In this document: one piece after another, positions 29,013 through 45,266 of the stretch
Numbering within the stretch: the first letter of the stretch is position 1
Layout: each line of letters begins with the position of its first letter
From: Spirochaetota bacterium
GTDB taxonomy: Bacteria > Spirochaetota > UBA4802 > UBA5550
Assembly: GCA_041737965.1 (NCBI GenBank)
Contig: JBGSQT010000021.1
Location: forward strand, 2,959-66,958
Direction: 5' to 3'
Length of the DNA: 64,000 nucleotides
Program-made: the position numbers and the translations under genes
The notes under the pieces: generated by a model
Seen by the model: only the letters and a program-made list of their open reading frames with translations
What the model was told of the DNA's origin: nothing
Databases searched by the model: none

Positions 29013-29525
29013 ATGAAAAATTATGTAATAATTATTGCGATCGGTTTCCTTCTATGTGTGATATCTACATCTTATGTTTTTTCACTTGAAGAAGGTCAGG
29101 AGGTGCCGACTTTCCTTTTTCGCTGTGTCGATAATACCGTTATAAACCTAAAAACGCAATGCTCTAAAGGACCGATGGTTATCTCCTTTTTTGACCACAA
29201 GTGTCCCCCCTGCATGAAAGAAATTCCTTTTATGCAAAAAATTAAGAATGAGAACCCAACACTAAAGGTAATACTCGTGGCTGGGCAAATGACGAACGCA
29301 TATCAGGCAGTTGAATTTATCAAGCAAATTGAGGATGTTTCCAGTATTACAATAAATCTTCCGGTAGTGATCGACAAGCATGGAGGCATTGAGAATGATT
29401 TCGGTGTTACAAGTCATCCGGATGTCTTCATTATTAAAAATGGTTGTCATGTATTCAAACGTTATAAAGGGTATAATGAGTCGAATTCAACTGAAATCGT
29501 GAGCGCTGTTGAATTATTGAAGTAG
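29013..29525 (+). CDS. secreted TlpA/AhpC-TSA-like thioredoxin-fold thiol:disulfide oxidoreductase
   Basis: 170-aa ORF. Signal anchor MKNYVIIIAIGFLLCVISTSYVFS. Active-site FFDHKCPPCMKEIPFM (CxxC). Confidence 0.8.
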   Translation: MKNYVIIIAIGFLLCVISTSYVFSLEEGQEVPTFLFRCVDNTVINLKTQCSKGPMVISFFDHKCPPCMKEIPFMQKIKNENPTLKVILVAGQMTNAYQAVEFIKQIEDVSSITINLPVVIDKHGGIENDFGVTSHPDVFIIKNGCHVFKRYKGYNESNSTEIVSAVELLK

Positions 29526-29634
29526 TTAGTCTCTGGAGTTTTTTCTGATTATATGTTAGAGTTAAATCATAAAATAATTTATTGTATCGCCTTATATAGT
29601 AATATGAAAATGGTTAGGTTATTAGGGGTATCAA

Positions 29635-31809
29635 ATGAAAAAGGCTGTACTAGGTTTACTCATTATAATTATCATTATTTCCGCTTGCTCTTGCAATGGG
29701 CAGCATGTCGGTAGCCAGGATATGAGTAGACCACTCATATATGTAAAAAATTTAATCCAACTTAAAGATGTCTCTGCACCAGAGGCTCAAACTATTTCAG
29801 AGGAAATCGAGAAGGCGGTAATCGCATCGGGTCGCTATGAGGTAATGAGTCAATCACAAGTGAAGGAGCTGTTCAATAATGCCGAAAAGAAGCAGATATT
29901 CGGGTGTAATGCCGAAGAATGTTTACGGCAGATAATGAAAACCACCATGACCGATTATCTTCTCTATGGTACTATTAGCAAAGATGAAGGTGAGTATGCG
30001 ATTTCGGTGAATTTGATGCGTCAGAAAGAGGGGGAAACAGCCGTGGTGGATAAGACAGCCACGAAGTTTACACGATCACTCTCGACCAAATCTCTTACAA
30101 ATATCACCAAGTTATTAATTAGTACTCTTCATGGAGAGAAAGTAATAGATGATAGCTCTAAAATACTGAAGGTGCCTAAATTGGAAGGTGATTTAGTTTA
30201 TTTTATTGTAAATTCAACACCACCAGGGGGTGATTTATATATCAGTGATATAAAGAAGGGATCCACACCTCGACGTTTACTTTTGCCAGCGCTCACTTAC
30301 AAGGGAAAGATTGAGAAATTTGGATACCAAACCGCTGAATTTGATATGAACCTCCAAGATAAACATGACTATAACATTTATCTCAAGAAGGAGGTATATA
30401 CTCTCAGTATAAAGGCCGATACTGGTATGACGAATGAGATTGATATATTTGAGGGTGATTCAATTCTTGGGAAAGTCCATAAAACGGGAATTTTATTAAT
30501 AATTGAGTCAGGTGAGCACCTCCTAACATTAAAAAGTAAGGATTATGAGGAAAAGCATATCGTTGTAAACATTTCGAAATCGACTTCACTTACAGTAAAG
30601 CTCAATAAAATACCTCTTGTTATGAAGAAGGCTACTATTGATGACCTTTCAATAGTAGGAAGTAAGAAACCCTTAATTTACATAAAAAACCTTGAATTGA
30701 CAAAAGAAATATCGGCAGTGGAGGCACAGGCTGTTTCAAGCGAAATCGAGAAGGCTGTAATCGCATCGGGTCGCTATGAGGTAATGAGTCAATCTCAAGT
30801 GAAGGAGCTGTTCAATAATGCTGAAAAGAAGCAGATATTCGGGTGTAATGCCGAAGAGTGTTTACGGCAAATCATGAAAACTACCATGACTGATTATCTT
30901 ATTGTTGGGAAAATTATTAATAATGAGGGTTTATATTCCATCTCAGTAAATCTAATGCGAATGACAGAGGACGAAGTCCCGATGGTGGTGAATAATGTAG
31001 TACGGACAACAGATTCGCTTTCTACAAAATCACTTATGCTCCTTGCCAAGGAGCTGATTGAGGTTTTGCATGGAGAGAAGAAGGAGACAAAGCATGGGAC
31101 AGAAAAGGAAATTGGTGGTATGAATTTTATATATATTAAGGGAGGAACGTTTTTAATGGGATCTCCTAAGGATTGGGATCTAGGCACAGAACGCCCCCAG
31201 CACCAGGTAACCTTGAGCGGTTTTTGGATGGGGAAATATGAGGTGACTCAGAAACAATATGAAGATATCATGGAAAAGAATCCAAGCTTTTTCAACGTAT
31301 TGCTCAAGGGAAATCATCCGGTGGAAACAGTAAGTTGGGATGATGCCACCACTTTCTGTGAAAAGTTCAGTGCTAAACATGGTATAAAATCGCGACTACC
31401 CTATGAGGCTGAGTGGGAATATGCATGCCGAGCCGGGAGTACAACGGAATATTACTGGGGATCAAACATTAAGGATGATTATCTATGGCACGGTTTCAAT
31501 TCCAAAGGAAAAACCCACTCGGTTGGAGGCAAGCTTCCTAATTCCTGGGGATTGTATGATATGAACGGCAATGTAGCTGAATGGTGTATGGACTGGTACG
31601 ATCAAGATTATTATAAGGTGAGTCCAACTATTAATCCAAAGGGCCCTTCATCAGGGGTATACCGTGTTGTGCGGGGTGGGTCTTGGGAAAATAATCTCAC
31701 CATAGGTGTAATCGATTTCATATTCCGCTCGTCGTATCGAAGTCACAAATACCCGGAATACAAGGATAATAAAAGCGGGTTTAGACTCGTAATTACACCG
31801 GGTGATTAA
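29635..31809 (+). CDS. lipoprotein: 2x LpoB/CsgG-like N-domain + PEGA-like domain + C-terminal FGE/SUMF1-like domain lacking catalytic Cys
   Basis: 724-aa ORF. Lipobox IIISAC. Duplicated ~130-aa module (res ~32-160 and ~345-475). STPPGGDLYISDIKKGSTP PEGA-like segment. FGE-sulfatase fold motifs GGTFLMGS, HQVTLSGFWMGKYEVTQKQY, HPVETVSWDDA, LPYEAEWEYACRAG, WGLYDMNGNVAEW, RVVRGGSW, GFRLV. Confidence 0.85.
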   Translation: MKKAVLGLLIIIIIISACSCNGQHVGSQDMSRPLIYVKNLIQLKDVSAPEAQTISEEIEKAVIASGRYEVMSQSQVKELFNNAEKKQIFGCNAEECLRQIMKTTMTDYLLYGTISKDEGEYAISVNLMRQKEGETAVVDKTATKFTRSLSTKSLTNITKLLISTLHGEKVIDDSSKILKVPKLEGDLVYFIVNSTPPGGDLYISDIKKGSTPRRLLLPALTYKGKIEKFGYQTAEFDMNLQDKHDYNIYLKKEVYTLSIKADTGMTNEIDIFEGDSILGKVHKTGILLIIESGEHLLTLKSKDYEEKHIVVNISKSTSLTVKLNKIPLVMKKATIDDLSIVGSKKPLIYIKNLELTKEISAVEAQAVSSEIEKAVIASGRYEVMSQSQVKELFNNAEKKQIFGCNAEECLRQIMKTTMTDYLIVGKIINNEGLYSISVNLMRMTEDEVPMVVNNVVRTTDSLSTKSLMLLAKELIEVLHGEKKETKHGTEKEIGGMNFIYIKGGTFLMGSPKDWDLGTERPQHQVTLSGFWMGKYEVTQKQYEDIMEKNPSFFNVLLKGNHPVETVSWDDATTFCEKFSAKHGIKSRLPYEAEWEYACRAGSTTEYYWGSNIKDDYLWHGFNSKGKTHSVGGKLPNSWGLYDMNGNVAEWCMDWYDQDYYKVSPTINPKGPSSGVYRVVRGGSWENNLTIGVIDFIFRSSYRSHKYPEYKDNKSGFRLVITPGD
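29803..29961 (+). repeat. intragenic direct repeat copy A (pairs with 30742-30900)
   Basis: Hand alignment: 151/159 identical to 30742-30900. All 8 differences are synonymous. Offset 939 bp. Confidence 0.9.
30742..30900 (+). repeat. intragenic direct repeat copy B
   Basis: See 29803-29961. Both encode EIEKAVIASGRYEVMSQSQVKELFNNAEKKQIFGCNAEECLRQIMKTTMTDYL. Confidence 0.9.
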
Positions 31810-31939
31810 TGTTGTTTTATGATTTAATTGCTGGATTCCTTATTCACTGAGAATATACACAAGAAAACCGCGATGATCCATCTGCTACGGAGTGGAACTC
31901 TATCGACAGAAAATGCATGGATAACCAAAGGAGTCAATT

Positions 31940-33421
31940 ATGAATAGTAGCTCTTTATTAGATTTTTTCTTACTATCGTTTTTAATACTGTTTATGAGTT
32001 GTACTTCAAGTTTATCTCGTGAGGAGATAGGTGTTGACGTAAACGAGAAACCACTTATCTATGTAAAAAATCTAATCTCTACCAAAGGGGTGAGTCCAGA
32101 AGAAACGAATATCATTTCCAGTGAGATAGAAAAAGCGGTGATTTCTTGCGGCCGCTACGAGGTTATGAGTCAATCTCAGGTGAATGAGCTCTTTAAAGCC
32201 GCAGAGCAGAAACAGCTCTTAGGTTGTAACGCAGAAGAGTGCCTCCGGAAGATTATGAAATCCACCATGACCGATTACCTGCTCTACGGCTCCATCAGTA
32301 AAGACGAGGGGGAGTATGCAATTTCAGTGAATCTAATCCGTCAGAAAGAGGGAGAAACCTTTGTGGTGGAGAAGACAGCCACGAAGTTTTCGCGCTCGCT
32401 CTCATCCAAATATTTAACGAGCATTGCACAAGAAATCATTAAGGATCTTCGTGGCGATAAGAACGATATAAGTATGATAACATCTGATGATGATTCAGAC
32501 GTCCTTATTGAAGTCAATGTCAAATCAACGCCACCTGGTGCCAAACTTTATATAAACGAAGTATTGAAAGGAGAAACTCCACTAATAATCCGAATGCCAG
32601 CATTTAAATACCAAGGGAAATTAGCTTATACTGGATACATCTTAAACAAGTTTGATATATCTATCCCACAAAAGATTGATTATTACATCAGCCTTGAAAA
32701 GGTATCCAACCAATTACTAAAGACTAAAAAAATTGGAGATATGGATTTTATTTATATTCCTGGTGGATTATTTGTTATGGGTTCAAAAATAAAAACAGGA
32801 AAATGGGTTATTGATGATGTTGTTCCTGAACATGAAGTAACACTTGATAGTTTTTGGATGGGGAAATATGAGGTGACTCAGAAACAATATGAAGATATCA
32901 TGGGAACAAATCCAAGTCATTTCCAGGGAGATCCAAAACTACCGGTTGAGAGGGTAAGTTGGAATAATGCAATGGCTTTTTGTAAAAAATTCAGCGCCAA
33001 GCATGGTATTGAAGTGCGCCTGCCCTATGAGGCCGAGTGGGAATATGCCTGCCGCGCCGGGAGCACAACGGAATATTACTGGGGAGATACAATCGATGGA
33101 GATTACCTTTGGTGGGATGACAATTCAGGATACAGAACTCATCCAGTTGGTAATAAACTCCCGAATGCATGGGGGCTTTACGATATCATTGGTAATGTAG
33201 CGGAATGGTGTATGGACTGGTATGATAAAGACTATTATAAGGTGAGTCCAAATATTAATCCCAAGGGACCTACAGCGGGGAAATCCCGTGTTGTGCGTGA
33301 CGTTTTGCGGTACAATGACGTTGGTAAATCATGCTTCCGCTCGTGGGGCCGTTACTTTGACCACCCGAATTACGCGAGCTATTGGTACGGGTTTCGCTTG
33401 GTGGTTTCACCCGGAGAATAA
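31940..33421 (+). CDS. lipoprotein paralogue: 1x LpoB/CsgG-like N-domain + PEGA-like + divergent FGE/SUMF1-like domain
   Basis: 493-aa ORF. Lipobox LFMSC. Same architecture as 29635..31809 with one N-module. Shares a 53-bp identical stretch with it (31221-31273 = 32851-32903). The RGGSW motif is replaced by RDVLRYND. Confidence 0.85.
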   Translation: MNSSSLLDFFLLSFLILFMSCTSSLSREEIGVDVNEKPLIYVKNLISTKGVSPEETNIISSEIEKAVISCGRYEVMSQSQVNELFKAAEQKQLLGCNAEECLRKIMKSTMTDYLLYGSISKDEGEYAISVNLIRQKEGETFVVEKTATKFSRSLSSKYLTSIAQEIIKDLRGDKNDISMITSDDDSDVLIEVNVKSTPPGAKLYINEVLKGETPLIIRMPAFKYQGKLAYTGYILNKFDISIPQKIDYYISLEKVSNQLLKTKKIGDMDFIYIPGGLFVMGSKIKTGKWVIDDVVPEHEVTLDSFWMGKYEVTQKQYEDIMGTNPSHFQGDPKLPVERVSWNNAMAFCKKFSAKHGIEVRLPYEAEWEYACRAGSTTEYYWGDTIDGDYLWWDDNSGYRTHPVGNKLPNAWGLYDIIGNVAEWCMDWYDKDYYKVSPNINPKGPTAGKSRVVRDVLRYNDVGKSCFRSWGRYFDHPNYASYWYGFRLVVSPGE

Positions 33422-34088: not shown

Positions 34089-36482
34089 ATGAACAAGAAA
34101 GCCCTCAGTGAACGCGATATCTGCACCAAGTTTATCATACCTGCCATAAAAGACGCTGGCTGGAACATCGACACACAGTTAAGGGAAGAAGTCTCCTTTA
34201 CCGACGGGCGCATCTATGTGAAGGGGAATAAAACCGCGCGCGGTGAAAAGAAGCGCGCCGATATCATCCTGTACTATAAGCCGAACATCCCGGTTGCGGT
34301 CATTGAAGCGAAGGATAACAATCACTCTGTCGGCGCCGGGATGCAGCAGGCGCTGCACTATGCGGAAATGATGGATATCCCTGTTGTCTATAGCTCCAAC
34401 GGTGATGGCTTTCTGGAGCACGATAAAACGAATGCTACCGGTAAGGTCGAGCAGGAGCTTGGCCTGGACCGTTTCCCCTCGCCGGAGGAGCTCTGGAAGC
34501 GTTATAAGCGGTATAAAGGGATAGAAACACCGGATCAGGAACACATCGCCTCCCACGATTACTTTTTCGATGGAAGCGGCAGAAAGCCCCGGTACTACCA
34601 GCAGAACGCCATCAACAGGGCCGTGGAGGCCATTGCAAAGCAGCAGAAGCGGATTCTCCTGGTGATGGCCACCGGCACGGGAAAGACCTATGTGGCTTTT
34701 CAGATCATCTATCGGCTCTGGAAGAGCGGGAGAGCGAAGCGGATACTGTTTCTTGCCGACAGGAACGCCCTTATCAATCAGACCAAACGGGGCGACTTCA
34801 AGCACTTCAAAGACCGCATGACGGTGATCCGCAAGAAGCAGATAGACAAGGCCTACGAGATATACCTGGCGCTGTACCAGGGGCTGACGGAGTACGATGA
34901 GGACAGGGACGCGTACCGGGAGTTCAGTCCCGATTTCTTTGATCTCATCGTCGTGGACGAGTGCCACCGGGGAAGCGCGGCCGCGGACAGTGCCTGGCGG
35001 GAGATACTGCAATACTTTACCAGCGCTACACAGATCGGTCTTACGGCGACTCCCAGGGAGACGAAAGACATATCGAACATCGAATACTTTGGTGAACCAA
35101 TTTACACCTATTCGTTGAAACAGGGCATCGAGGATGGATTCCTTGCACCCTATAAGGTTATCCGTGTGGGGGTGAATGTCGATCTTGAAGGCTGGCGGCC
35201 CGAAATCGGCAAAAAGGATAAAGAAGGGAATACCATCGAAGACCGTGTGTATAATGCCAAAGATTACGACAGGAACCTCGTCATTGAAGAGAGAACGCTT
35301 TTAGTGGCCCGCAAGGTGACGGAGTTCCTTAAAAAGACCGACCGGTTCGATAAAACCATTATCTTCTGCGTGGATATCGAACATGCCGAGAGAATGCGGC
35401 AGGCCCTGGCCAATGAGAACAGCGACCTGGTACAGATCAATTACAAGTATATCATGCGTATCACCGGCGACGAAGAAGAGGGGAAACGGGAGCTCGATAA
35501 CTTTATCAACCCTGAGGAGCGGTATCCGGTTATCGCCACCACCTCGAAGCTCATGACCACCGGCGTTGACGCGCAGACGTGCAAGCTCATCGTGCTGGAC
35601 AGCGTGATCAATTCCATGACCGAGTTCAAGCAGATCATCGGGCGCGGTACCCGCATCAACGAGGAATACGGGAAAAGTTATTTCACCATCATGGACTTCC
35701 GCAACGTGACGGACCTCTTTGCTGATCCTGCCTTCGACGGCGATCCTGTCATGGTGAAGCAGGTGAGGGGAGATGCCCCGCTTACCGATGAGGATATCAA
35801 TCCCGAAATGGATGGTGATATCATCGACAGTGAAACCGGCAAGCCCATTGATTTCACCGAGTACCAAGAGAGCAGCGGGAAGGCCGAGGTGATCGCCGAT
35901 GGTGACGGCCCCAGGGCCCAGGGCAAGATATATGTCGCCGGTATCGACGTATCAATCCTGAATGAACGGGTACAGCACCTGGACGGGAATGGCAAGCTCA
36001 TTACCGAAAGCCTCAGGGACTACACGAAGCGCACCATACTAAAGGAATTCCGGTCCCTCAAGGATTTCCTCACTAAATGGAATACGGCAGATAAGAAAAA
36101 GGCGATCATCGATGAACTGGAGGAGCACGGGGTCATCCATGAAAACCTCAGGGAAGAGGTGCAGAAAGACCTGGATATCTTCGACCTCATCTGCCATGTG
36201 GCGTGGGACATGCCTGCCCTGACGAGACGAGAACGGGCTGATAACGTGAAGAAGAGGAACTACTTCACGAAATACGGCGACAAGGCCCGCCTGGTCATCC
36301 AGGCGCTGCTGGACAAGTATGCCGACGAAGGCATCGAGAATATCGAGGACCTGTCGGTGCTGAAGATTGAACCATTTACCGCCATGGGTACCCCGGCGGA
36401 AATAGTTTCGATCTTTGGTGGCAAAGAGGCGTATTTGAAAGCGATCAAAGAACTTGAACAAGAGATCTATAGAGCCGCCTGA
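34089..36482 (+). CDS. hsdR: Type I restriction enzyme R subunit (EcoAI/EcoEI, type IB-like)
   Basis: 797-aa ORF. N-terminal nuclease ..RADIILYYKPNIPVAVIEAKD.. (D...ExK). SF2 motor LLVMATGTGKT (Walker A) and VVDECHRGS (DEAH box). C-terminal EcoEI_R_C-like tail. Confidence 0.92.
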   Translation: MNKKALSERDICTKFIIPAIKDAGWNIDTQLREEVSFTDGRIYVKGNKTARGEKKRADIILYYKPNIPVAVIEAKDNNHSVGAGMQQALHYAEMMDIPVVYSSNGDGFLEHDKTNATGKVEQELGLDRFPSPEELWKRYKRYKGIETPDQEHIASHDYFFDGSGRKPRYYQQNAINRAVEAIAKQQKRILLVMATGTGKTYVAFQIIYRLWKSGRAKRILFLADRNALINQTKRGDFKHFKDRMTVIRKKQIDKAYEIYLALYQGLTEYDEDRDAYREFSPDFFDLIVVDECHRGSAAADSAWREILQYFTSATQIGLTATPRETKDISNIEYFGEPIYTYSLKQGIEDGFLAPYKVIRVGVNVDLEGWRPEIGKKDKEGNTIEDRVYNAKDYDRNLVIEERTLLVARKVTEFLKKTDRFDKTIIFCVDIEHAERMRQALANENSDLVQINYKYIMRITGDEEEGKRELDNFINPEERYPVIATTSKLMTTGVDAQTCKLIVLDSVINSMTEFKQIIGRGTRINEEYGKSYFTIMDFRNVTDLFADPAFDGDPVMVKQVRGDAPLTDEDINPEMDGDIIDSETGKPIDFTEYQESSGKAEVIADGDGPRAQGKIYVAGIDVSILNERVQHLDGNGKLITESLRDYTKRTILKEFRSLKDFLTKWNTADKKKAIIDELEEHGVIHENLREEVQKDLDIFDLICHVAWDMPALTRRERADNVKKRNYFTKYGDKARLVIQALLDKYADEGIENIEDLSVLKIEPFTAMGTPAEIVSIFGGKEAYLKAIKELEQEIYRAA

Positions 36483-36877
36483 TGAAACCACGAATGGACA
36501 CGAATACACACGAATTGATTTACAAGGAAGAAGTTTATGAAATTGTCAATGCGGCGATGGAGGTTTTGAACACACTCGGTCATGGTCTGTTTGAAAAGGT
36601 GTATGAGAATGCATTGGTTGTCGAAATAAAAAGACGTGGCATATCTATCGATCAACAGAAGCGTTTTGATGTAATCTATAAAGACGAGCTCGTCGGAGAA
36701 TATATGCCTGATCTGATAGTGTACGATCGCATCATACTCGAAATAAAAACAATTGACACGATTACCAATCATGAGAGGGGGCAGGTCATTAACTATCTCC
36801 GGTTGACCGGCTTGAAACTTGGATTAATACTTAATTTTAAAAAGGCAAAGCTTGAATGGGAGCGAATTGTATTATAA
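36482..36877 (+). CDS. GxxExxY family protein (PD-(D/E)xK-fold) inserted between hsdR and hsdM
   Basis: 131-aa ORF. GHGLFEKVYENAL (GxxExxY motif), ..PDLIVYDRIILEIKT.. (D...ExK). ATG overlaps the hsdR stop (TGATG at 36480-36484). The N-terminus MKPRMDTNTHE is encoded by CACGAAT repeats. Confidence 0.88.
   Translation: MKPRMDTNTHELIYKEEVYEIVNAAMEVLNTLGHGLFEKVYENALVVEIKRRGISIDQQKRFDVIYKDELVGEYMPDLIVYDRIILEIKTIDTITNHERGQVINYLRLTGLKLGLILNFKKAKLEWERIVL
36489..36515. repeat. CACGAAT x3 (10-bp period), left arm of GxxExxY cassette
   Basis: cacgaat at 36489, 36499 and 36509. Confidence 0.85.
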
Positions 36878-36883
36878 AACCAT

Positions 36884-36910
36884 ATTCGTGCTCATTCGTG
36901 TTAATTAGTG
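36884..36910. repeat. ATTCGTG x2(+1 degenerate), inverted right arm of GxxExxY cassette
   Basis: attcgtg at 36884 and 36894, attagtg at 36904. Reverse complement of the left-arm motif with the same 10-bp period. Lies just after the GxxExxY stop. Confidence 0.8.
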
Positions 36911-36922
36911 GTTATTGCTTAT

Positions 36923-38356
36923 ATGAAAAACATCGGTAGTATCATCAAGTCATTACAGAACATCATGCGCAAGGACCCGGGCGTATCCGGCGACGCCCAG
37001 CGCATCGAGCAACTGGGCTGGCTCATCTCCCTGAAGATACTGGACGACAAGGACAAGGAGTTGGAGCTCATCAACGATTCCTACGCGTCGCCGATCCCGG
37101 AGGAACTGCGGTGGAGGAACTGGGCGGCGAACGACGAGGGGATGACCGGCGACGAGCTGAAGAACTTCATCGACGGCAAACTATTCCCGAAGCTCAAGAA
37201 CCTCGACGTGAGCACCGGCAACAAGCGGGCCCTCATCATCCGGGAGATCTTCGAGGGGACCAACAACTACATGAAAAACGGCACCGTCATCCGCCAGGTG
37301 CTGAACCAGCTCAACCAGATCGACTTCAATATCTCCGAAGACCGGCACATGTTCGGCGACATGTATGAAACCATCCTCCGGGACCTGCAGAGCGCCGGAA
37401 ATTACGGTGAATTCTACACCCCCCGGGCGATCACCGACATCATGACCGAGCTCGTCAATCCCCGGCTGGGCGAGAAGGTGCTGGACCCCGCCTGCGGCAC
37501 CGGGGGCTTCCTCACCAGCGCCATCGAGAACATCCGACGGCAGGACGTGAAGGGCGTCGACGACCTGAAAACGCTGGAAGCCACCATCCACGGCATGGAA
37601 TTCAAGCCCCTGCCGTTCATGCTGGCGGTGACCAACCTCATCCTCCACGACATCGAAGTGCCCAACATCGATTATACCGACAGCCTGAACCGGGAATACA
37701 CCGGCATCGGCCAGAAGGACCGGGTGGACGTGATCCTGGCCAACCCGCCCTTCGGCGCGTCCGTAACCGACGGCGCTGAGACCAACTTTCCCCAGAACTA
37801 CCGCACCACGGAAAGTGCGGACCTGTTCCTGGTGCTCATGATCCGCTACCTGAAAGAGGGTGGCCGCGCGGCGATCGTGCTGCCCGACGGGTCGCTCACC
37901 GGCGACGGGGTGAAGCAGCGCATACGCCAGCATTTCCTGGAGAGCTGTAACCTCCATACGATCGTGCGTCTGCCCAATTCGGTGTTCCAGCCCTACGCGA
38001 GCGTGGCGACGAATCTGCTTTTCTTCATCAAGGGCGAGCCGACTAAAGAGATCTGGTACTGGGAGCACAAACTTCCCGAAGGAGTTAAGGCATATTCCAA
38101 GACGAAGCCGATACAGAAAAGCGAGTTTGAGAACCTGAAAAAGTGGTGGAAGAAGCGGAAAGAGAGCGAGCTGGCCTGGAAGGTATCGATAAAGACAATT
38201 GCTGAGAATGGATATACTCTTGATATAAAAAATCCCCATACGCCGGAGGCGGAGCATACATACTCAAGTAAAGAATTATTGTCTATGCTTCATGATTCTT
38301 TCAGGAAGAGTGATGAGTTGTTGGGTAAGTTGAAGAAGGAACTGACTGAGAGATAA
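36923..38356 (+). CDS. hsdM: Type I R-M N6-adenine DNA methyltransferase subunit
   Basis: ORF 36908..38356 (GTG). ATG at 36923 preferred. SAM motif VLDPACGTGGFL, catalytic ILANPPFGAS, HsdM N-terminal helical domain. Confidence 0.92.
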   Translation: MKNIGSIIKSLQNIMRKDPGVSGDAQRIEQLGWLISLKILDDKDKELELINDSYASPIPEELRWRNWAANDEGMTGDELKNFIDGKLFPKLKNLDVSTGNKRALIIREIFEGTNNYMKNGTVIRQVLNQLNQIDFNISEDRHMFGDMYETILRDLQSAGNYGEFYTPRAITDIMTELVNPRLGEKVLDPACGTGGFLTSAIENIRRQDVKGVDDLKTLEATIHGMEFKPLPFMLAVTNLILHDIEVPNIDYTDSLNREYTGIGQKDRVDVILANPPFGASVTDGAETNFPQNYRTTESADLFLVLMIRYLKEGGRAAIVLPDGSLTGDGVKQRIRQHFLESCNLHTIVRLPNSVFQPYASVATNLLFFIKGEPTKEIWYWEHKLPEGVKAYSKTKPIQKSEFENLKKWWKKRKESELAWKVSIKTIAENGYTLDIKNPHTPEAEHTYSSKELLSMLHDSFRKSDELLGKLKKELTER

Positions 38357-38478
38357 TGGTTCTCGCAAAGAACGCGAAGGTCGCAAAGATAAAGCAATAT
38401 CCTTTCTTCGCGTACTTTGCTGTCTTTGCGTGAAATATAAAATGTCACATAGACTACGCAGAGAGCGCAGAGGAGAAC

Positions 38479-38505
38479 CACGAATGGACACAAATGGACA
38501 CGAAT
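38479..38505. repeat. solo third copy of the CACGAAT-type arm in the hsdM-hsdS spacer
   Basis: aaccacgaatggacacaaatggacacgaat, compared with aaccacgaatggacacgaatacacacgaat at 36486-36515. Same orientation as the left arm. Confidence 0.8.
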
Positions 38506-38516
38506 AAGGATTTATA

Positions 38517-39881
38517 ATGAGTCATTTTGATATTGTTAAGCTTTCTGAAGTAATTAAACAACGCAAAGGGAGCATTATTATTGATAATGATAAGGAATAT
38601 AAACTATGCCGAGTTCAATTGCACCGACGAGGTGTTGTCCTACGCGGGAAACAATTTGGATATCAGATAAAAACAAAAAAACAGCAGATATGTCATGCTG
38701 GTGATTTAATTGTCGCTGAGATGGATGCCAAATTTGGAGGATATGGTTTTATTCCCTCAGAATTAGAAGGAGCAATTGTAAGTAGTCATTATTATTTATA
38801 TAGTCTTGATAAATCAAAAATAACTCAAGAGTACTTACAGACTTTGATTAAAACTGATTATATTCAAAATCAAATTGAAGCAAAAGGGAGTACTAATTAT
38901 TCTTCAATAAGGGCATGGGAATTTCTGGATTATAAAATTCCATTACCAAGCTTAGAAAGACAACATGAAATTTCTTTGAATTATATTAGACATGATAATT
39001 TTAAAGAATCATTTATTCGGGAAAACGATTATCAATCCTCCTACCTCTCCCTTCTCCGACAAGCCATCCTGCAGGAAGCCATCGAAGGAAAATTAACCGA
39101 GGCCTGGCGTAAGAAAAATCCTGTCAAACCGGGCGACCCGGACTACGACGCGGCGTCGCTTCTTGAGAAGATCAAGGCTGAAAAGCAGAAGCTCATTGCG
39201 GAAGGGAACCCTTCGACCGGGCTCAGGGCGAGGATTAAGAAAGAGAAGCCCCTTGTCCCGATTAAGCCCGAGGAGGTGCCGTTCCAGGTGCCGGAGGGGT
39301 GGGTGTGGTGCAGGTTGGGGGAGGTGTGTTTTAAAATAACTGATGGTTTTCACAATACTCCTAAAAAATTATTAAAAGGAATTCCTTACATAGCTGCGAC
39401 ACATGTGAAATCAGATAAAATTGATTGGGAACAATGTCATTATGTATCTGAAAAGGATCATAAAGAACTATTTACGAAAACGTATCCACAAAAAGGAGAA
39501 ATATTATTAGTTAACATTGGAGCTGGATGTGGTACACCTGCAATTATTGATGTTGACTTTGAGTTTAGTTTTAAAAATACAGCAATTTTAAAATTTAACC
39601 AATCACATATTTCTAATAAATATATATTCAATTATTTTATTCTTAAACGTAATGAAATTTATTCAGAGCTTACAAAGGGAGGTTTACAACCTTTTTTAAG
39701 TTTAAGTATACTAAATAATATTATAATCCCGCTTCCCCCTCTTGATGAACAGTATGCTGTTGTTGAGCGAGTTGAGCGGCTTGTCGCAATGGTGAATGAG
39801 CTGGAAATGCAGGTGGCCGAGCGGAAGGAGCGGGCGGAGGAGTTGATGCAGGCAGTGTTAAGGGAGGCGTTTGAGGCATGA
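38517..39881 (+). CDS. hsdS: Type I R-M specificity subunit (two TRDs)
   Basis: 454-aa ORF. Two AT-rich variable TRDs separated by a GC-rich central conserved helix (SYLSLLRQAILQEAIEGKLTEAWRKKNP...) and a C-terminal conserved helix (LDEQYAVVERVERLVAMVNELEMQVAERKERAEELMQAVLREAF). Confidence 0.88.
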   Translation: MSHFDIVKLSEVIKQRKGSIIIDNDKEYKLCRVQLHRRGVVLRGKQFGYQIKTKKQQICHAGDLIVAEMDAKFGGYGFIPSELEGAIVSSHYYLYSLDKSKITQEYLQTLIKTDYIQNQIEAKGSTNYSSIRAWEFLDYKIPLPSLERQHEISLNYIRHDNFKESFIRENDYQSSYLSLLRQAILQEAIEGKLTEAWRKKNPVKPGDPDYDAASLLEKIKAEKQKLIAEGNPSTGLRARIKKEKPLVPIKPEEVPFQVPEGWVWCRLGEVCFKITDGFHNTPKKLLKGIPYIAATHVKSDKIDWEQCHYVSEKDHKELFTKTYPQKGEILLVNIGAGCGTPAIIDVDFEFSFKNTAILKFNQSHISNKYIFNYFILKRNEIYSELTKGGLQPFLSLSILNNIIIPLPPLDEQYAVVERVERLVAMVNELEMQVAERKERAEELMQAVLREAFEA

Positions 39882-39968: not shown

Positions 39969-40859
39969 ATGAGAAAAATATTAAAATTATCAGATACAAT
40001 TCACTCCATTCCGCTTGGTGATTTTCCAATTACCGGCAATCTTAATAAAGATGTGGAAGCTTATGTTAAGTATAAAAATATACCAAGTCATATTCAAAAT
40101 TTAAACGACAATATTTTTGTGACACTCATTTTTCGGTTAGGATTTGGACAAAAAATGACTGTTCATACACTTACTGAAGGTGTAATAGATAAAGTAAAAA
40201 ATACAAAAATTGAAAATGTACCTAATGAAGTTCCAGATTTAATGAAACATTCGTTTCTATTTGAAGCAAAAAATGATAATGTTCTTTTTGATAATATTGT
40301 TTCAATTGGCGGCTTTACATATAATAATGAAATATGCTTATTAATTGGTAAAAAAGATAGTTATTATATCCAACACCATGATGCGTCCTTTGATGGTAGA
40401 AAAATTGAAGACCTTAACTTGGTTTACAATACAAATATTAATTACCCTGAGTCATTTATTCAAATGAAGGAAAGGAAAGATACTTTTGCTTTTGTAACAA
40501 TTCTTTCATTAATGCTTGAGGCTGACCGAACACCTTTGATGGTTGATAGTAAAGCAGAGAAGAAAAATTACAAAACTAAAAGTATAATAAAGAATATTAC
40601 TGAAACAGGTTGGATTAATAAACGTATCTATATAGATAAAAATATTCAATATAAAAATAATTCTAAAGGCTATAGCGAATTAAATAAAAATGGTAAACTA
40701 TTAAAAGATGTTATTGTTCATGGATTTTTAAGGAAGCAGCATTATGGTAAAGATAATGCTCAAATAAAATGGATATATATAGATAGTTTTGATTCAACAA
40801 GATGGGCAAGTAATAAGGATATAAATGTTACTGTGGATATATATGATAAAAAAGAATGA
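39969..40859 (+). CDS. hypothetical protein, no recognisable domain (island module gene 1)
   Basis: 296-aa ORF, very AT-rich, Lys/Asn/Ile-rich but non-repetitive. Co-directional with hsdS, 87 nt downstream. Confidence 0.6.
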   Translation: MRKILKLSDTIHSIPLGDFPITGNLNKDVEAYVKYKNIPSHIQNLNDNIFVTLIFRLGFGQKMTVHTLTEGVIDKVKNTKIENVPNEVPDLMKHSFLFEAKNDNVLFDNIVSIGGFTYNNEICLLIGKKDSYYIQHHDASFDGRKIEDLNLVYNTNINYPESFIQMKERKDTFAFVTILSLMLEADRTPLMVDSKAEKKNYKTKSIIKNITETGWINKRIYIDKNIQYKNNSKGYSELNKNGKLLKDVIVHGFLRKQHYGKDNAQIKWIYIDSFDSTRWASNKDINVTVDIYDKKE

Positions 40860-40928: not shown

Positions 40929-41651
40929 TTGGAAAGTATTAAAAAGCGTAAAATGAATCGAGAGGAAAAACTCGCTGATGATTATTTAAAAAATATTTAT
41001 AACAATGTACTTTTTGAACCTGATGGTAATATCCCACCTGATTTTTTAATAAATAATGACATAGCTGTTGAAGTTCGTAGATTAAATCAGCACAAAATAA
41101 TTTCAGGTAAATACCAACCATTAGATAATAAATCGCTATCTATATTTCATTCTATTGAAAAGGCCATAGAAAGTATAAAATCAGAAAATAATAATTGTTA
41201 TATCGTTAGTATTGATTTTGAACAACCAATCGATATTAGATTTATTAAAAAAGAAATTATTAATAGACTCAAACAATTCTTAGGAAATCCAGTACCATTA
41301 CCATGTAAAATTGAAATTAATGATAGTTTTAGTTTTGAAATTTATCCTGCTGAACCAAAATATTCTTCCACATTTATTTTAGGTGCTATGAATGATCTTG
41401 ATAATGGTGGATTTATATTATCGCTCCTGATAAAAAATATAAATATTTGTATCGACGAAAAGACGGAAAAGATTCAACGTTATAGGAATAAATATAGAAT
41501 ATGGTGGTTAATACTTATTGATACCATTGGATATGGTTCTTATAAATCAGAAATTAATTCAATAAAATCGAAATTAGTAATTGATCCCGTTTGGTCTAAA
41601 ATAATAATATTGAATACTTTGAATGGTGAATTTATAGCAGAAATAACATGA
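40929..41651 (+). CDS. hypothetical protein with PD-(D/E)xK-like N-terminal signature (island module gene 2)
   Basis: 240-aa ORF (TTG start in track; ATG at 40953 also possible). EEKLADDYLKNIYNNVLFEPDGNIPPDFLINNDIAVEVRRL resembles E...PD...(D/E)x(K/R) nuclease cores. Assignment is pattern-based only. Confidence 0.55.
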   Translation: MESIKKRKMNREEKLADDYLKNIYNNVLFEPDGNIPPDFLINNDIAVEVRRLNQHKIISGKYQPLDNKSLSIFHSIEKAIESIKSENNNCYIVSIDFEQPIDIRFIKKEIINRLKQFLGNPVPLPCKIEINDSFSFEIYPAEPKYSSTFILGAMNDLDNGGFILSLLIKNINICIDEKTEKIQRYRNKYRIWWLILIDTIGYGSYKSEINSIKSKLVIDPVWSKIIILNTLNGEFIAEIT

Positions 41652-41796: not shown

Positions 41797-42053
41797 ATGC
41801 AATCATTACATATTTTACAAGGTGGATATAAAATGATGATAAAGCATTATTTGTAAAACAAAGTAAGATGAAATCACTTACTTGGACTGTCCCCAAGAAA
41901 GCCATCATGGGAGATGATGTAGTTATTTTTATTAATGCATTTGGTTTTTATGCGACCGGATACGTTAAATCCTTGCCAGTAAAGGATAAGAATTGGAGTA
42001 ATAGGTATTCAGCTCTAATAGATAATATATCATTAATTGTACAATTATCGTAA
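41797..42053 (+). pseudogene. frameshifted small gene relic
   Basis: ATG 41797 with TAGGAGA RBS reads MQSLHILQGGYK, then stops at 41854. The -1 frame continues NDDKALFVKQSKMKSLTWTVPKKAIMGDDVVIFINAFGFYATGYVKSL... to 42053. The frames join at the A-run 41830-41833 (one base missing). Confidence 0.5.
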
Positions 42054-42129
42054 TGACCTGACAATCATTTGAAAAACAGAAGAAGTGGGTGCATACAGTG
42101 GAGAGGTTGAAGCAGAGGTGGGTGGTACT

Positions 42130-44223
42130 ATGACAACCCTTTTTGGCAAGCTGGATAAGATTAAATATTTGCAGATTGTGCATAATGACAAACCAGCAGA
42201 TTTAAGTTTCACAGAGATATTCGACACGAATTCATTTGATGAAATTTCAATAACCACATTTGTATCATCTCCCGGTTTTTTCTTTGAAAACACAAAAAAA
42301 TTTAAAGATGTGACACTCGTCCTTGGTATTGAAGATAATGAATCGATCAGCAGGTTTTATTTTGATCCGGTTGTACAGAATGAGTTTTATAAAGACGCGG
42401 ACAAAGAAACGATTTTAAAAATAAAAAATGGAAGTTTGAAAATTTACTTTGCCCCTTTAAATACATCTATTCATTCTAAATTATACATTCTGAAAAATTC
42501 AACAACGGGCAATGCGAGATTGATTTTGGGTTCCGCTAATTTCACCGAAAACGCCTTTTCCGGTAAAAGACAGTTTGAAGAAATTATAGTATTTGATAAT
42601 GATTATAATCCGGCAATCGTTAAGCTTTATGAGGAACGGTTTTCATATATTCTTAGCCAGTGTGTTGACTTTGTACCAGAAAGATTAAAAAAGAAGATCA
42701 AAGATGGAATCACCATTAATAACATCAATCTTAGTGAAGACGATTTTATTGAAGCTCTAAAGGATAATGTAAAAAGAATAACTCAGACAATTACAATAAC
42801 TGAAGATACAGCTCGGGAGTTTGATATTCTTAAAACAAGTCTTCACAATGACGAAGCAAATGTAAAAAGTAAACTTGAGAGCATTAATCGTACCAGGACA
42901 ATATTTGAGAATATCAGTAAAAACAAGGACGGTATAGTCGCAATTATTACTCCCTCTGAAATTACACGGAAAAAGGAAACGATTATTTCTAAGACCTTTA
43001 TTAAAGAAGATAAGAAAATATTTACCGACAACAGAATCAAAGCATATTACTCTAAAAGCGCGGATAGCATTTTTAGGGAAGACGTATCGAGCGGCTGCAG
43101 TATACATTATGCAGCGAAAGCCGATCTTAATGTATTAAAGGAAAAATTTATTCTATTAAACAGGTTTATTGATGCCTATGACGAGTTTACAATTAATGAT
43201 GTAAAAGAGACAAAGCTCCGTATTTTTGAAGCGATTCTATACTCATTTATTTCGCCGTATATCTGGAAGATAAGAGACGAATATGCCCGTATAGATAATA
43301 AAAACGAGGCAAGAGCATCTGTTCCAATTTTTTTATTAATTGCGGGACAATCTCAATCGGGGAAAACTCATCTAATCAAATTCATTAGCAAGATCATGGG
43401 AAATTATGGAAATTATTATCATTTCACAAAGCAGGGTCGGCTATTTTCGCAGGATCATATAAATCCTCAGATTATTGATAATTTTCTTTATGAAGAGATC
43501 CTTACTCCTGTATTTGTAGATGAAATCTCCAAGGAATACTTTAGCTCGCAAAGCTCCGTTACGAGCAATTATATGGGTGAGGATTTTGTAAAAAAGATTA
43601 CTAATACCAAAGAGGGAGTATTTCCCGGAGTCATAGCAACAAGCAATACCGATTTTTCAGCGAATCCCCAGGTGATGAGAAGAATTTACTATATACAACT
43701 CAATAATCCCTTTGATCCGGATAAAAAGACTGAGACTTCAAACTACTTTAATGAAATATATGAAGCATTCGGTACGGAGCTTTTTCAAGATTTTTTATTT
43801 AGACTTGAACAAAAGTTCAAAGAGGAAATGATAATCAATCAAGAAGATTTTTTATGTGTTGGCAGATCAATCTTTCTTGAATACTTTACGGAAATCGGTA
43901 TTCCTGTTCCTTCATGGTTTTCTCCTGGAAGAATCGATGATTATTATTTAAGGGGAAAACAATTATGGCAACGACTCTATAGAATGAAGAAAAAAGGTTT
44001 TAATGAAGATAAATCAAAAAATGAAATTACTATTGATGATGATATTGTCTTTGGCAGTAAGCTTACCGTAAGCAGGGATAAACGTGAATGCTTACAGTAT
44101 CTTCATGCCGGAATAATTATTGAGGACAAGGGACTCGTTGTTTTGAACAGGAAAAAGTTTTTGGGGTTTATCAGCGAAGAAAATTCCGTAATATCATTTA
44201 TAAAACGGTTAAAAAAATCATAG
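42130..44223 (+). CDS. PLD-family (single HKD) nuclease domain fused to SF3/D5-like P-loop NTPase (island module gene 3)
   Basis: ORF 42085..44223; ATG 42130 preferred (AGAGGTG upstream). N-terminal IHSKLYILKNSTTGNARLILGSANFTENAF (HxK...GSxN). C-terminal Walker A LLIAGQSQSGKTHL, Walker B TPVFVDEISK, motif C GVIATSNTDF. Confidence 0.75.
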   Translation: MTTLFGKLDKIKYLQIVHNDKPADLSFTEIFDTNSFDEISITTFVSSPGFFFENTKKFKDVTLVLGIEDNESISRFYFDPVVQNEFYKDADKETILKIKNGSLKIYFAPLNTSIHSKLYILKNSTTGNARLILGSANFTENAFSGKRQFEEIIVFDNDYNPAIVKLYEERFSYILSQCVDFVPERLKKKIKDGITINNINLSEDDFIEALKDNVKRITQTITITEDTAREFDILKTSLHNDEANVKSKLESINRTRTIFENISKNKDGIVAIITPSEITRKKETIISKTFIKEDKKIFTDNRIKAYYSKSADSIFREDVSSGCSIHYAAKADLNVLKEKFILLNRFIDAYDEFTINDVKETKLRIFEAILYSFISPYIWKIRDEYARIDNKNEARASVPIFLLIAGQSQSGKTHLIKFISKIMGNYGNYYHFTKQGRLFSQDHINPQIIDNFLYEEILTPVFVDEISKEYFSSQSSVTSNYMGEDFVKKITNTKEGVFPGVIATSNTDFSANPQVMRRIYYIQLNNPFDPDKKTETSNYFNEIYEAFGTELFQDFLFRLEQKFKEEMIINQEDFLCVGRSIFLEYFTEIGIPVPSWFSPGRIDDYYLRGKQLWQRLYRMKKKGFNEDKSKNEITIDDDIVFGSKLTVSRDKRECLQYLHAGIIIEDKGLVVLNRKKFLGFISEENSVISFIKRLKKS

Positions 44224-44298
44224 CAAATATACTGCTCCCCTGACCTGACAATCCACCTATAAAACATGATATATTGTAAAATACTGAGAGAATATATC

Positions 44299-44560
44299 AT
44301 GGGGAATGAATCTGATTTTGATAGTCCACAAAGATTGACAACGAAAAGAAAGACGGTATTGGTGTTGAGTATTTTTATAGGTGATATTTCAACACAGGAA
44401 GCAGCCCGCCAGAATGGGTTAACAGTGGCAGAAATTCAGGAATGGAAAGACTGTTTTCTATCGGGTGCAGAAAGCGCGTTGCAGAGCCGTTCCAAAGACG
44501 AAGAAGCGCTCAAGGATGAACAGATCAAGAAACTGGAACGCAAGGTGTGCCAGTTGGTGA
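44299..44560 (+). pseudogene. IS3-family OrfA-like HTH transposase fragment
   Basis: MGNESDFDSPQRLTTKRKTVLVLSIFIGDISTQEAARQNGLTVAEIQEWKDCFLSGAESALQSRSKDEEALKDEQIKKLERKV has the HTH + leucine-zipper start typical of IS3/IS911 OrfA. Similarity ends at ~44550. No OrfB/DDE part follows. Confidence 0.55.
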
Positions 44561-44816
44561 AGAATTTGGGCGATACTCTACTTTTGATATCGATTATAAC
44601 GGATTCGTTGAAGATGAAACCCTTGGCCGCAGTTTCGTCCGAAGCCTTGAAGTGATCGGTGAAGCGGTGAAACACCTGCCTCAGGATTTCAGGGACTCCG
44701 ATGACGGCATTGAATGGAAGAAGATCGCCGGAATGAGAGATATGTTGATTCAGCATATTTTCGGCGTCGATTACAAGCTGGTATGGGACGTGGTGAAAAA
44801 CCATGTTCCCGATTAA
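44547..44816 (+). pseudogene. N-terminally truncated HepT (DUF86) toxin remnant
   Basis: ..FVRSLEVIGEAVKHLPQDFRDSDDGIEWKKIAGMRDMLIQHIFGVDYKLVWDVVKNHVP carries the R-x4-H-x-(Y/F) HepT motif. About 25-30 N-terminal residues appear to be missing. No MNT antitoxin gene is adjacent. Confidence 0.6.
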
Positions 44817-45020: not shown

Positions 45021-45093
45021 GCCAACGTGGCTCAGTCGGTAGAGCAGCTCACTCGTAATGAGCAGGTCGCCGGTTCGATTCCGGCCGTTGGCT
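45021..45093 (+). tRNA. tRNA-Thr (anticodon CGU)
   Basis: Hand-folded cloverleaf: acceptor GCCAACG/CGTTGGC, D arm GCTC-AGTCGGTA-GAGC, anticodon stem GCTCA/TGAGC with loop CTCGTAA, T arm GCCGG-TTCGATT-CCGGC. CCA not encoded. Confidence 0.9.
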
Positions 45094-45266
45094 CACACGC
45101 ACAGGGGCGTCCCGGAAGGGGCGCCCCTCTGTTATCCCGCCGCTGCGACCTCCGGGGCATACCCAATTTATATTGACACCACTGAATCAATAGACGATAA
45201 TTTGACGGATGATTATCGCGAACCGGCATTGTTGACGGTTCGACCCATGCCAATGCGGAGGCGGTC

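Follow-up and report, generated by a model that had tools for sequence, protein, structure and literature searches.

A single gene joins a predicted PLD nuclease to an SF3-like ATPase

The window analysed here is a 64,000-nt stretch of a Spirochaetota bacterium genome (GenBank assembly GCA_041737965.1, contig JBGSQT010000021.1, positions 2,959 to 66,958), whose forward strand carries an intact open reading frame (ORF) of 697 amino acids that couples a predicted phospholipase D (PLD) nuclease domain to an ATPase resembling superfamily 3 (SF3) helicases. The ORF can be read from a GTG at 42085 or an ATG at 42130 and ends at 44223. The ATG was taken as the start because homologues open with MTTLF and because an identical 697-aa public protein (P0001) exists; a GGTGG lies ~9 nt upstream of it. 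The complete fusion gene is therefore placed at 42130-44223, stop codon included, an assignment that draws on the ORF list, the identity to P0001 and 61 homologous clusters of the same length and architecture. Its GC content is 33.1%, against ~57% for the host backbone.

The original prediction, made from the letters of the window and a list of its ORFs, had read the protein as a PLD nuclease followed by an SF3/D5-type NTPase on the strength of four motifs, and all four are present in the intact ORF. In particular, the HKD block IHSKLYILKNSTTGNARLILGSANFTENAF spans aa 114-143 (nt 42469-42558; H115-S-K117 ... G134-S-A-N137), the Walker A motif LLIAGQSQSGKTHL spans aa 402-415 (nt 43333-43374, with K412), the Walker B motif PVFVDEISK spans aa 460-468 (nt 43507-43533, with D464/E465) and the motif C or sensor-1 VIATSNT spans aa 501-507 (nt 43630-43650, with N506). 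Two further elements on the same strand complete the set: an invariant E150 that follows the HKD motif (nt 42577-42579), and an RR pair, R517/R518 (nt 43678-43683), which is a candidate arginine finger. The distance from H115 to K412 is 297 aa, in line with the roughly 300 aa that had been estimated, and HxK occurs exactly once in the whole 697-aa protein, which agrees with the claim of one HKD copy.

The N-terminal half

Sequence models and a predicted fold together indicate that the N-terminus is a single-HKD PLD nuclease domain of the restriction-endonuclease type. The domain was delimited at 42157-42675 of the forward strand (~aa 10-182) by Pfam matches above their cut-offs and by Foldseek matches. 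Specifically, PLDc_2 scores 32.7 bits (cut-off 27) and RE_NgoFVII scores 29.6 bits (cut-off 23.8), while Tyr-DNA_phospho, at 23.5 bits, is barely above its cut-off of 22; PLDc_2 and RE_NgoFVII are both matched by 22 of 23 relatives. The full protein was modelled with AlphaFold at a mean predicted local distance difference test score (pLDDT) of 83.6. The top Foldseek match of this full model is SauUSI (PDB 7clg, E 4.4e-6), and its PLD fold matches the NgoAVII R-protein (4rct), BfiI (2c1l), Tdp1 and Zucchini with a probability of 1.00. The N-terminal assignment of the original prediction is thus upheld at the level of both Pfam and fold.

Single-HKD PLD domains, such as those of Nuc, BfiI and SauUSI, must pair to build one active site. 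The Asp expected in the HxK(x)4D pattern is absent, and position 122 is a Lys in the window protein, as had been noted from the sequence; across the family the position is variable (K, S, E or R). Nuc does not use this Asp in catalysis, and Tdp1 lacks it too. Degeneracy of the HKD motif, which had been raised as a possible flaw, was not found: among 169 full-length relatives, H115 is kept in 169, K117 in 168, G134 in 168, S135 in 168, N137 in 169 and E150 in 165.

The C-terminal half

The ATPase core was placed at 43321-43713 of the forward strand (aa 398-528) from its motifs, their conservation, profile-profile comparison with hhalign and Foldseek matches. Within it, K412, D464/E465 and N506 fall in a span of 95 aa, and R517/R518 lie 11-12 residues past N506, where they align with the RR of P4/D5-type helicases. 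The same 169 relatives keep G411 and K412 (169 each), T/S413 (169), D464 (165), E465 (162, with Asp in 7 more), N506 (169) and R518 (169). Conservation of this order, 96-100% for the catalytic residues in both halves, sets the motifs apart from chance matches, and, judged from the alignment, both active sites are under strong purifying selection.

Curated sequence models did not place this half within SF3. The models looked for were Pox_D5, D5_N, DUF5906, Parvo_NS1, PPV_E1_C, RNA_helicase and similar ones; the C-terminal 370 aa gave no SF3 match in Pfam, and none appeared among the 25 commonest families of 23 relatives at E<=1. Searches of PDB sequences with the single protein and two profiles returned no C-terminal relative, with P-loop noise and weak PLD matches as their sole yield, and the window protein matched nothing in NCBIfam. 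The matches that did appear are of a more general kind. PHROG 1139 ('DNA primase') gave marginal P-loop matches in 9 of the 23 relatives. The Pfam AAA model (PF00004), which leaves the window protein unmatched, is matched at E<=1 by 8 of them, and one relative (P0034) passes it with 26.6 against 21.2 bits over the whole core (aa 382-498). SF3 is a branch of the AAA+ class (ATPases associated with diverse cellular activities), and the match of P0034 therefore fits general AAA+ membership. A Zeta_toxin Pfam match was disregarded, as it covered the P-loop only and was below its cut-off.

Structure comparison points more closely to SF3. The C-terminal 370 aa were modelled separately (pLDDT 87.9, predicted template modelling score 0.84), and their best PDB fold matches are SCCmec Cch, monkeypox E5, vaccinia D5, the large T antigens of SV40 and JCV, the NrS-1 helicase, AAV Rep40 and B19 NS1; classical AAA+ proteins (Mpa, RFC, FtsH, TRIP13) rank somewhat below these. 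Among the predicted viral structures of BFVD there are 111 matches at E<=1e-3, and the top matches that carry a name are mostly D5-type, DUF927, virophage and other primase-helicases and SF3-type replication proteins, with many of the top rows nameless. The TM-scores are modest (0.2-0.44), so that the fold by itself says 'nearest to SF3' and not 'member'.

Profile-profile comparison, which the original prediction had proposed as a check, brings the P-loop out as SF3-like. The C-terminal profile of the family, built from 169 sequences, was compared with a 13-sequence P4-alpha/D5-type alignment consisting of P4 alpha and 12 diverse phage primase-helicases drawn from 12 phage genomes; the phage genomes were used because a search seeded with P4 alpha gave near-identical enterobacterial sequences only. 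The result was a probability of 96.1% (E 3.1e-9) over 136 columns, covering the pre-Walker-A helix, Walker A, Walker B, the B' region, the TxN sensor-1 and the RR finger followed by PF, and a reversed-template control gave 0.1%. Within this span, a conserved G483-E484..K488..N492 segment aligns with the LKxxTGGD (motif B') region, where the model has helices. Single SF3 sequences reached 67-89% over 113-144 columns; CbbX-like AAA, IstB, putative McrB-type, DnaB-like and SbcC-like proteins reached at most 53%, mostly over the P-loop only. The comparison became informative only after deeper profiles had been built on both sides: an early run, with a profile of 16 sequences against P4 alpha alone, had given 12.9%, over the P-loop only.

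The safest statement, from sequence profiles and the model, is that the C-terminus is an AAA+-class ATPase whose closest detectable relatives, among the P-loop proteins compared, are the D5/P4-type SF3 helicases. The SF3/D5-type call of the original prediction holds in this form, by fold and by profile.

The linker and the C-terminal end

Between the two enzymatic domains, the linker (42685-43110 of the forward strand, aa 186-327) is the most variable part of the family and is modelled at a pLDDT of ~59-80. In the model it consists of a helical, coiled-coil-like stretch (aa 186-261) and a small alpha/beta domain (aa 263-326); the profile of the family's mid-region is undetected in most of the more distant relatives. 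The model then has a helical region just before the ATPase core (43111-43320, aa 328-397) with helices at 333-352, 360-389 and 392-397, all at a pLDDT above 90, and hhalign aligns the last part of this region to the pre-Walker-A helix of P4/D5-type helicases.

Downstream of the core, the model shows a four-helix bundle (43714-43989, aa 529-620), which carries the conserved D573, R579 and W613, and then a small alpha/beta domain (43990-44184, aa 621-685) whose modelled secondary structure is winged-helix-like. The latter is a candidate DNA-binding module. The Foldseek alignments to Cch and primase-helicases span ~350-500 columns, well past the ~140-aa core.

The fusion is obligate, rare and patchily distributed

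A word-indexed search found 62 clusters of 600-711 aa, but for one 466-aa fragment. Precomputed Pfam annotation places PF27394 ('Aq_aa27') on 61 of the 62, including P0001, and nearly all carry PLD models as well. With the C-terminal profile alone the word-indexed search gave 7 fragments only; an exhaustive HMMER search with this profile found 510 representatives at E<=1e-3, 338 of them at E<=1e-10. All retrieved full-length matches carry the family's PLD N-terminus, and all 169 full-length relatives have both modules; one seeming exception (P0196) has PLDc_2 at 4.5e-10. Because every full-length match of the C-terminal profile has the PLD N-terminus, the fusion of the PLD and SF3-like modules is, by this sequence evidence, obligate.

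A 392-aa 'NTPase-only' relative in Thermodesulfovibrio aggregans was considered as a split version and rejected, its PLD half having been removed by an insertion sequence (IS) of the IS256 type (Transposase_mut). The truncated copy lies at 4083-6179 of its locus (L040), with a ParE/ribbon-helix-helix toxin-antitoxin pair just downstream.

Among 185,579 species representatives 28 carry a relative, and these belong to at least eight phyla, archaea included; the carrier lineages are Spirochaetota, Campylobacterota, Nitrospirota, Desulfurellales, Thermotogota, Bacillota, Gracilibacteria and an Aenigmatarchaeote. They also occur on 14 of 72,556 plasmids, all of them large replicons. None of 50,697 phage genomes carries the family, and a pattern scan of IMG/VR did not find it. 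Some copies have been interrupted by an IS element or cut short. These data show a family that is rare, patchy and horizontally spread.

Public annotation calls these proteins 'phospholipase D family protein', 'restriction endonuclease PLD domain-containing protein' or 'hypothetical' only. Searches of the literature, under the name Aq_aa27 or for PLD paired with SF3, D5 or primase-helicase, returned nothing relevant, and no description of PF27394 was found. The original prediction had asked whether the architecture might be a common annotated family with a known housekeeping role; neither such a role nor experimental literature was found for the PF27394 family.

The gene travels alone

Gene neighbourhoods were compared at ~25 loci by all-against-all BLAST and pooled Pfam scans, and no conserved partner gene was detected beyond the synteny of close relatives. 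The gene, then, travels alone, without a methyltransferase or other conserved partner. Defence or mobility genes recur in some neighbourhoods. For example, BREX adjoins the family gene in one conjugative element, where the gene follows a relaxase; on an Athalassotoga plasmid a UvrD-PDDEXK helicase, a methyltransferase and ResIII lie beside it; one locus has PIN toxin-antitoxin pairs, WYL and N6_Mtase nearby, another has AAA_15/21, a Cap4 nuclease and an integrase, and another has a TOTE conflict-system gene. The pooled neighbour scan, which is not resolved per locus, also holds two AAA_5 (McrB-type) matches.

Replication genes are neighbours on some replicons. On Arcobacter plasmid p82 (L041) the family gene abuts parA/parB, and rep and a dnaB-like gene lie farther off; on Ligilactobacillus salivarius megaplasmids (L042 and L044) it lies ~1.7-1.9 kb from repA or replication-initiation genes. 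In an Arcobacter chromosomal island, the ORFs upstream of it resemble, on inspection by eye only, genes for a DnaB-like helicase and an AlpA-like helix-turn-helix (HTH) protein.

Two loci share another kind of neighbour. In Arcobacter cryaerophilus (L014, 10596-14605), inspection by eye suggests Mre11/SbcD-like and Rad50/SbcC-like genes downstream (MSIKFIHCADVHLG...), and on a Halobaculum plasmid (L046, 8127-13599) Mre11/SbcD-like and Rad50/SbcC-like genes are followed by NurA and ATP-binding protein genes. The presence of such SbcCD/Mre11-Rad50-type followers in two unrelated hosts may be coincidence or may reflect a functional link to DNA-end processing.

A proposed NTP-dependent nuclease directed at invading DNA

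NTP-dependent nucleases are a major theme of prokaryotic immunity, with type I, III and IV restriction, McrBC, SauUSI, Mokosh, Azaca and Gabija as examples, and the coupling of PLD nucleases to NTPases is well established among defence systems. Against this background, our analysis leads us to favour, with about equal chances of being right or wrong, a self-sufficient NTP-dependent DNA nuclease that would act in conflict with invading DNA, as a phage or plasmid defence of the nuclease-NTPase or type IV-restriction-like kind. In effect, the layout is that of a P4 alpha or poxvirus D5 primase-helicase with a restriction-type nuclease in the primase's place.

Under this proposal, the SF3-like module would oligomerise into a ring, as its relatives do, and the DNA target would be recognised by the winged-helix-like domain, the linker domains or both. 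ATP hydrolysis would then drive DNA translocation or remodelling, and the action of the ring would bring two PLD domains together to form the one active site for which a single HKD must pair. The paired site would cut DNA through a phosphohistidine intermediate, with no need for a metal ion.

A defence setting is suggested by the recurrence of defence and mobile contexts, namely type I restriction-modification (RM), BREX, UvrD-PDDEXK, toxin-antitoxin, Cap4 and TOTE genes, together with the putative SbcCD-like genes of Arcobacter and the pooled AAA_5 matches. Further, the distribution is like that of a defence gene, because it is sparse over at least eight phyla, includes copies that are IS-broken or truncated and is absent from phage genomes. 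A stand-alone nuclease without a cognate methyltransferase, as seen across the ~25 loci, is a feature of type IV restriction. Azaca and Mokosh have been treated as PLD-type nuclease-NTPase defence systems (bioRxiv 10.1101/2025.07.10.664194).

Several results weigh against a defence nuclease of this kind. Pfam scans of the protein and its relatives detected no modified-base reader (SRA, EVE, YTH or similar). In PADLOC-DB 2.0 no full-length match was found, and the single hit, to ZacB (E 7.3e-6), is confined to the HKD motif and takes in 40 of the 586 positions of the profile. Every close structural relative of the ATPase is a replication protein and none a defence protein. About half of the inspected loci are ordinary housekeeping neighbourhoods (major facilitator superfamily transporters, methyl-accepting chemotaxis proteins, Na/H antiporters, P-type ATPases), for which reason guilt by association is only moderate, and in three Desulfurellales metagenome-assembled genomes (MAGs) the gene has a stable syntenic place beside rpsT/groESL. 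Finally, the model gives no sign of a pre-sensor-1 beta-hairpin in the stretch from Walker B to motif C, which makes true helicase activity uncertain.

Comparison with known systems

The closest overall likeness is to SauUSI, the ATP-dependent type IV enzyme of S. aureus. Both are single polypeptides with an N-terminal single-HKD PLD domain, an NTP motor and a C-terminal DNA-recognition part (both of these predicted in the present case), and both stand alone without a methyltransferase. However, the motor of SauUSI belongs to superfamily 2 (SF2; DEAD/ResIII-type), its target-recognition domain is SRA-like, and there is no sequence similarity outside the PLD domain. The closest PLD domains are those of NgoAVII/NgoFVII/CglI and BfiI, in which a single HKD dimerises to form one active site and of which NgoAVII and CglI need an ATPase; in these enzymes, though, DNA recognition is B3-like, the ATPase is a separate SF2-like subunit (absent in BfiI) and a methyltransferase is present.

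Among other defence systems, McrBC follows the logic proposed for the present protein, a ring-forming AAA+-class NTPase motor paired with an endonuclease, again without a methyltransferase, but its nuclease is of the PD-(D/E)xK type on a separate subunit and its motor comes from another AAA+ branch; an Arcobacter neighbour taken as McrB-type gave 12% in hhalign against the PLD-SF3 family. Mokosh, Azaca and DrmC of DISARM combine a PLD-like nuclease with an NTPase in phage defence (bioRxiv 10.1101/2025.07.10.664194), but their NTPases are not SF3-type and most of these systems are multi-gene. With 40 of 586 profile positions matched, the PLD-SF3 protein is not a member of ZacB.

On the replication side, P4 alpha, D5/E5 and Cch share the 370-aa C-terminal fold, the core motifs (Walker A, B and B', the TxN sensor-1 and RR-PF) and the domain order of helical region, core, helical part and winged-helix-like end. 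They differ in carrying an N-terminal primase (Toprim or archaeo-eukaryotic type) and in being replication proteins of phages, satellites and plasmids, and their Pfam models (DUF5906, D5_N, Pox_D5) are not among the matches of the family. The Rep proteins that join an HUH nickase to SF3 (AAV Rep, parvovirus NS1, CRESS-DNA Rep) also place a DNA-cleaving domain before the SF3 module, and Rep40 and NS1 are among the fold matches; their nickase works with a covalent tyrosine link, and they are viral replication initiators.

Alternative explanations

A defence role could also be filled in another way, in which the ATPase would serve as a regulatory switch: infection-cued nucleotide binding or oligomerisation would license PLD dimerisation and indiscriminate cleavage, as in abortive infection. 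This version shares the domain and context evidence of the translocating nuclease, and it would suit a model in which no beta-hairpin for DNA translocation stands out between Walker B and motif C; the variable linker could act as the sensor, and in many nuclease-NTPase systems the NTPase is used for control (bioRxiv 10.1101/2025.07.10.664194). The conservation of Walker B, sensor-1 and the arginine finger, however, argues for real hydrolysis cycles, and the nearest homologues are processive helicases. We consider a pure switch rather unlikely. A role in cellular DNA repair or processing, for example as a Tdp1-like phosphodiesterase that removes 3' or 5' adducts and is coupled to a helicase, appears highly improbable. 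It would accommodate the marginal Tyr-DNA_phospho score (23.5 vs 22 bits) and the presence of Tdp1 among the fold matches, the stable rpsT/groESL synteny in the three Desulfurellales MAGs, and the Mre11/Rad50/NurA-type genes that follow in Halobaculum, together with the SbcCD-like pair read by eye in Arcobacter. RE_NgoFVII and PLDc_2 nevertheless fit the domain better than Tdp1 in Pfam, the distribution is extremely sparse and patchy for such a factor (28 of 185,579 species), copies that are IS-disrupted or truncated exist, and the strongly atypical GC content of the gene here implies a recent transfer.

The relatives of the C-terminal module raise a different option: a mobile element might use the protein as a Rep-like initiator or for its mobility, which would make it the PLD analogue of an HUH-SF3 Rep or of primase-SF3 proteins such as P4 alpha. 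Here the winged-helix-like domain would bind the site at which the PLD domain nicks, possibly with a covalent phosphohistidine, and SF3 would unwind from the nick. The nearest relatives of the module are all replicative helicases of viruses, satellites and plasmids, and the order of N-terminal nucleic-acid enzyme, SF3 and winged-helix-like domain mirrors Rep and P4 alpha. The genomic setting adds to this in places: rep/par genes are near on Arcobacter p82 and the L. salivarius megaplasmids, a relaxase precedes the gene in one conjugative element, the ORFs upstream in the Arcobacter island were read by eye as a DnaB-like helicase and an AlpA-like HTH protein, and in the window a 13-nt direct repeat brackets the gene. 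Yet the family gene is often the sole foreign gene among housekeeping genes, conserved flanking DNA or iterons were not found, and flanking repeats occur at only 2-3 of 23 loci. The family is also absent from the searched phages and present on 14 of 72,556 plasmids, all large and several with their own annotated rep near the locus, and the closest relatives of the PLD domain are restriction endonucleases. Taken together, a Rep-like initiator seems rather unlikely. A bolder and slightly more doubtful form of the idea is a PLD-based counterpart of Rep and primase-helicases that nicks, possibly with covalent phosphohistidine attachment, at a site read by the winged-helix-like domain and unwinds with SF3, and that either replicates or mobilises its own cassette or processively shreds invading replicons; if true, it would be a new selfish single-gene element or a ring-motor restriction enzyme derived from a captured viral replication helicase.

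Significance of the architecture

The PLD-SF3 protein is a real, conserved and uncharacterised architecture within the NTP-dependent PLD nucleases, with a motor borrowed from viral replication machinery, and it is not paradigm-breaking. The defence nucleases named above use NTPases of superfamilies 1 and 2, of the classical AAA+ type or of the ABC type, and a predicted SF3 motor stands in their place here. A D5/P4-type SF3 module, otherwise a hallmark of viral and plasmid replication, is thereby joined to a restriction-type PLD nuclease, and the combination is intact across bacteria and archaea.

If it is a defence enzyme, the family would represent a compact, 2.1 kb, single-gene and probably metal-independent system with a new mechanistic flavour, in which immunity has recruited a parasite's replication motor, and it could be of use as a tool enzyme. 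If it is Rep-like, it would be a new class of replication or mobility initiators. In either case, for PF27394, which is without functional annotation, the putative catalytic residues are now defined as H115, K117, N137, E150, K412, D464/E465, N506 and R518.

The low-GC island and the 13-nt repeat

In the window, the gene lies in a mosaic low-GC island (~27.9-45.0 kb) of a genome with ~57% GC, just upstream of a tRNA-Thr gene (45021-45094) at the island end. A perfect 13-nt direct repeat, TGACCTGACAATC, brackets the gene on the forward strand, with its upstream copy at 42054-42066 and its downstream copy at 44241-44253, 18 nt past the stop codon. These are the only two copies in the 64-kb window, even with one mismatch allowed; none of 100 shuffles reached two copies, and none of 300 shuffles of the flanks reached a 13-nt repeat. 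Directly upstream of the gene, a 61-aa ORF (41868-42053, forward strand) ends exactly at the upstream copy; it matches no family and may be a gene fragment.

The repeat may mark an insertion event here, perhaps as a target-site duplication or as the scar of an insertion. Only 1-2 of 22 other loci have comparable flanking repeats, which are significant only in the window and at one other locus (L008). DNA homology to relatives that are 71-78% identical ends precisely where the ORF does. A cassette structure, bounded by conserved ends or by target-site duplications, was rejected as a feature of the family on these grounds.

Downstream of the PLD-SF3 gene and before the tRNA-Thr gene lie two overlapping, apparently decayed fragments, one of an IS3-type transposase HTH (44266-44655) and one of a HepT-like RNase toxin (44547-44816). 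Repeats of the tRNA-Thr gene that would bound the island in the manner of att sites were looked for and none was found.

Upstream, the island contains a complete type I RM system on the forward strand (34089-39881), made up of hsdR (34089-36482), hsdM (36908-38356) and hsdS (38517-39881), with a PDDEXK_3 gene (36482-36877) separating hsdR from hsdM. The start of the PDDEXK_3 gene (36486-36515) and the stretch just before hsdS (38476-38505) share a 30-nt repeat, AACCACGAATGGACAC.... The interval from hsdS to the PLD-SF3 gene holds two forward-strand ORFs of 296 and 240 aa (39969-40859 and 40929-41651) with ~28-31% GC, which have no significant match in Pfam, NCBIfam or PADLOC and no homologue beside other family members; the 240-aa protein has a PDF...AVEVRR stretch that, read by eye, might be a PD-(D/E)xK-like motif.

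Further upstream, the low-GC part of the island (29013-33421, forward strand) holds a redoxin (AhpC/TSA-like) gene and two paralogues (29635-31809 and 31940-33421) predicted to encode lipoproteins with PEGA and FGE-sulfatase domains. In the first of these, an N-terminal module of ~300 nt is internally duplicated, so that there are three copies in all, 72-78% identical to one another.

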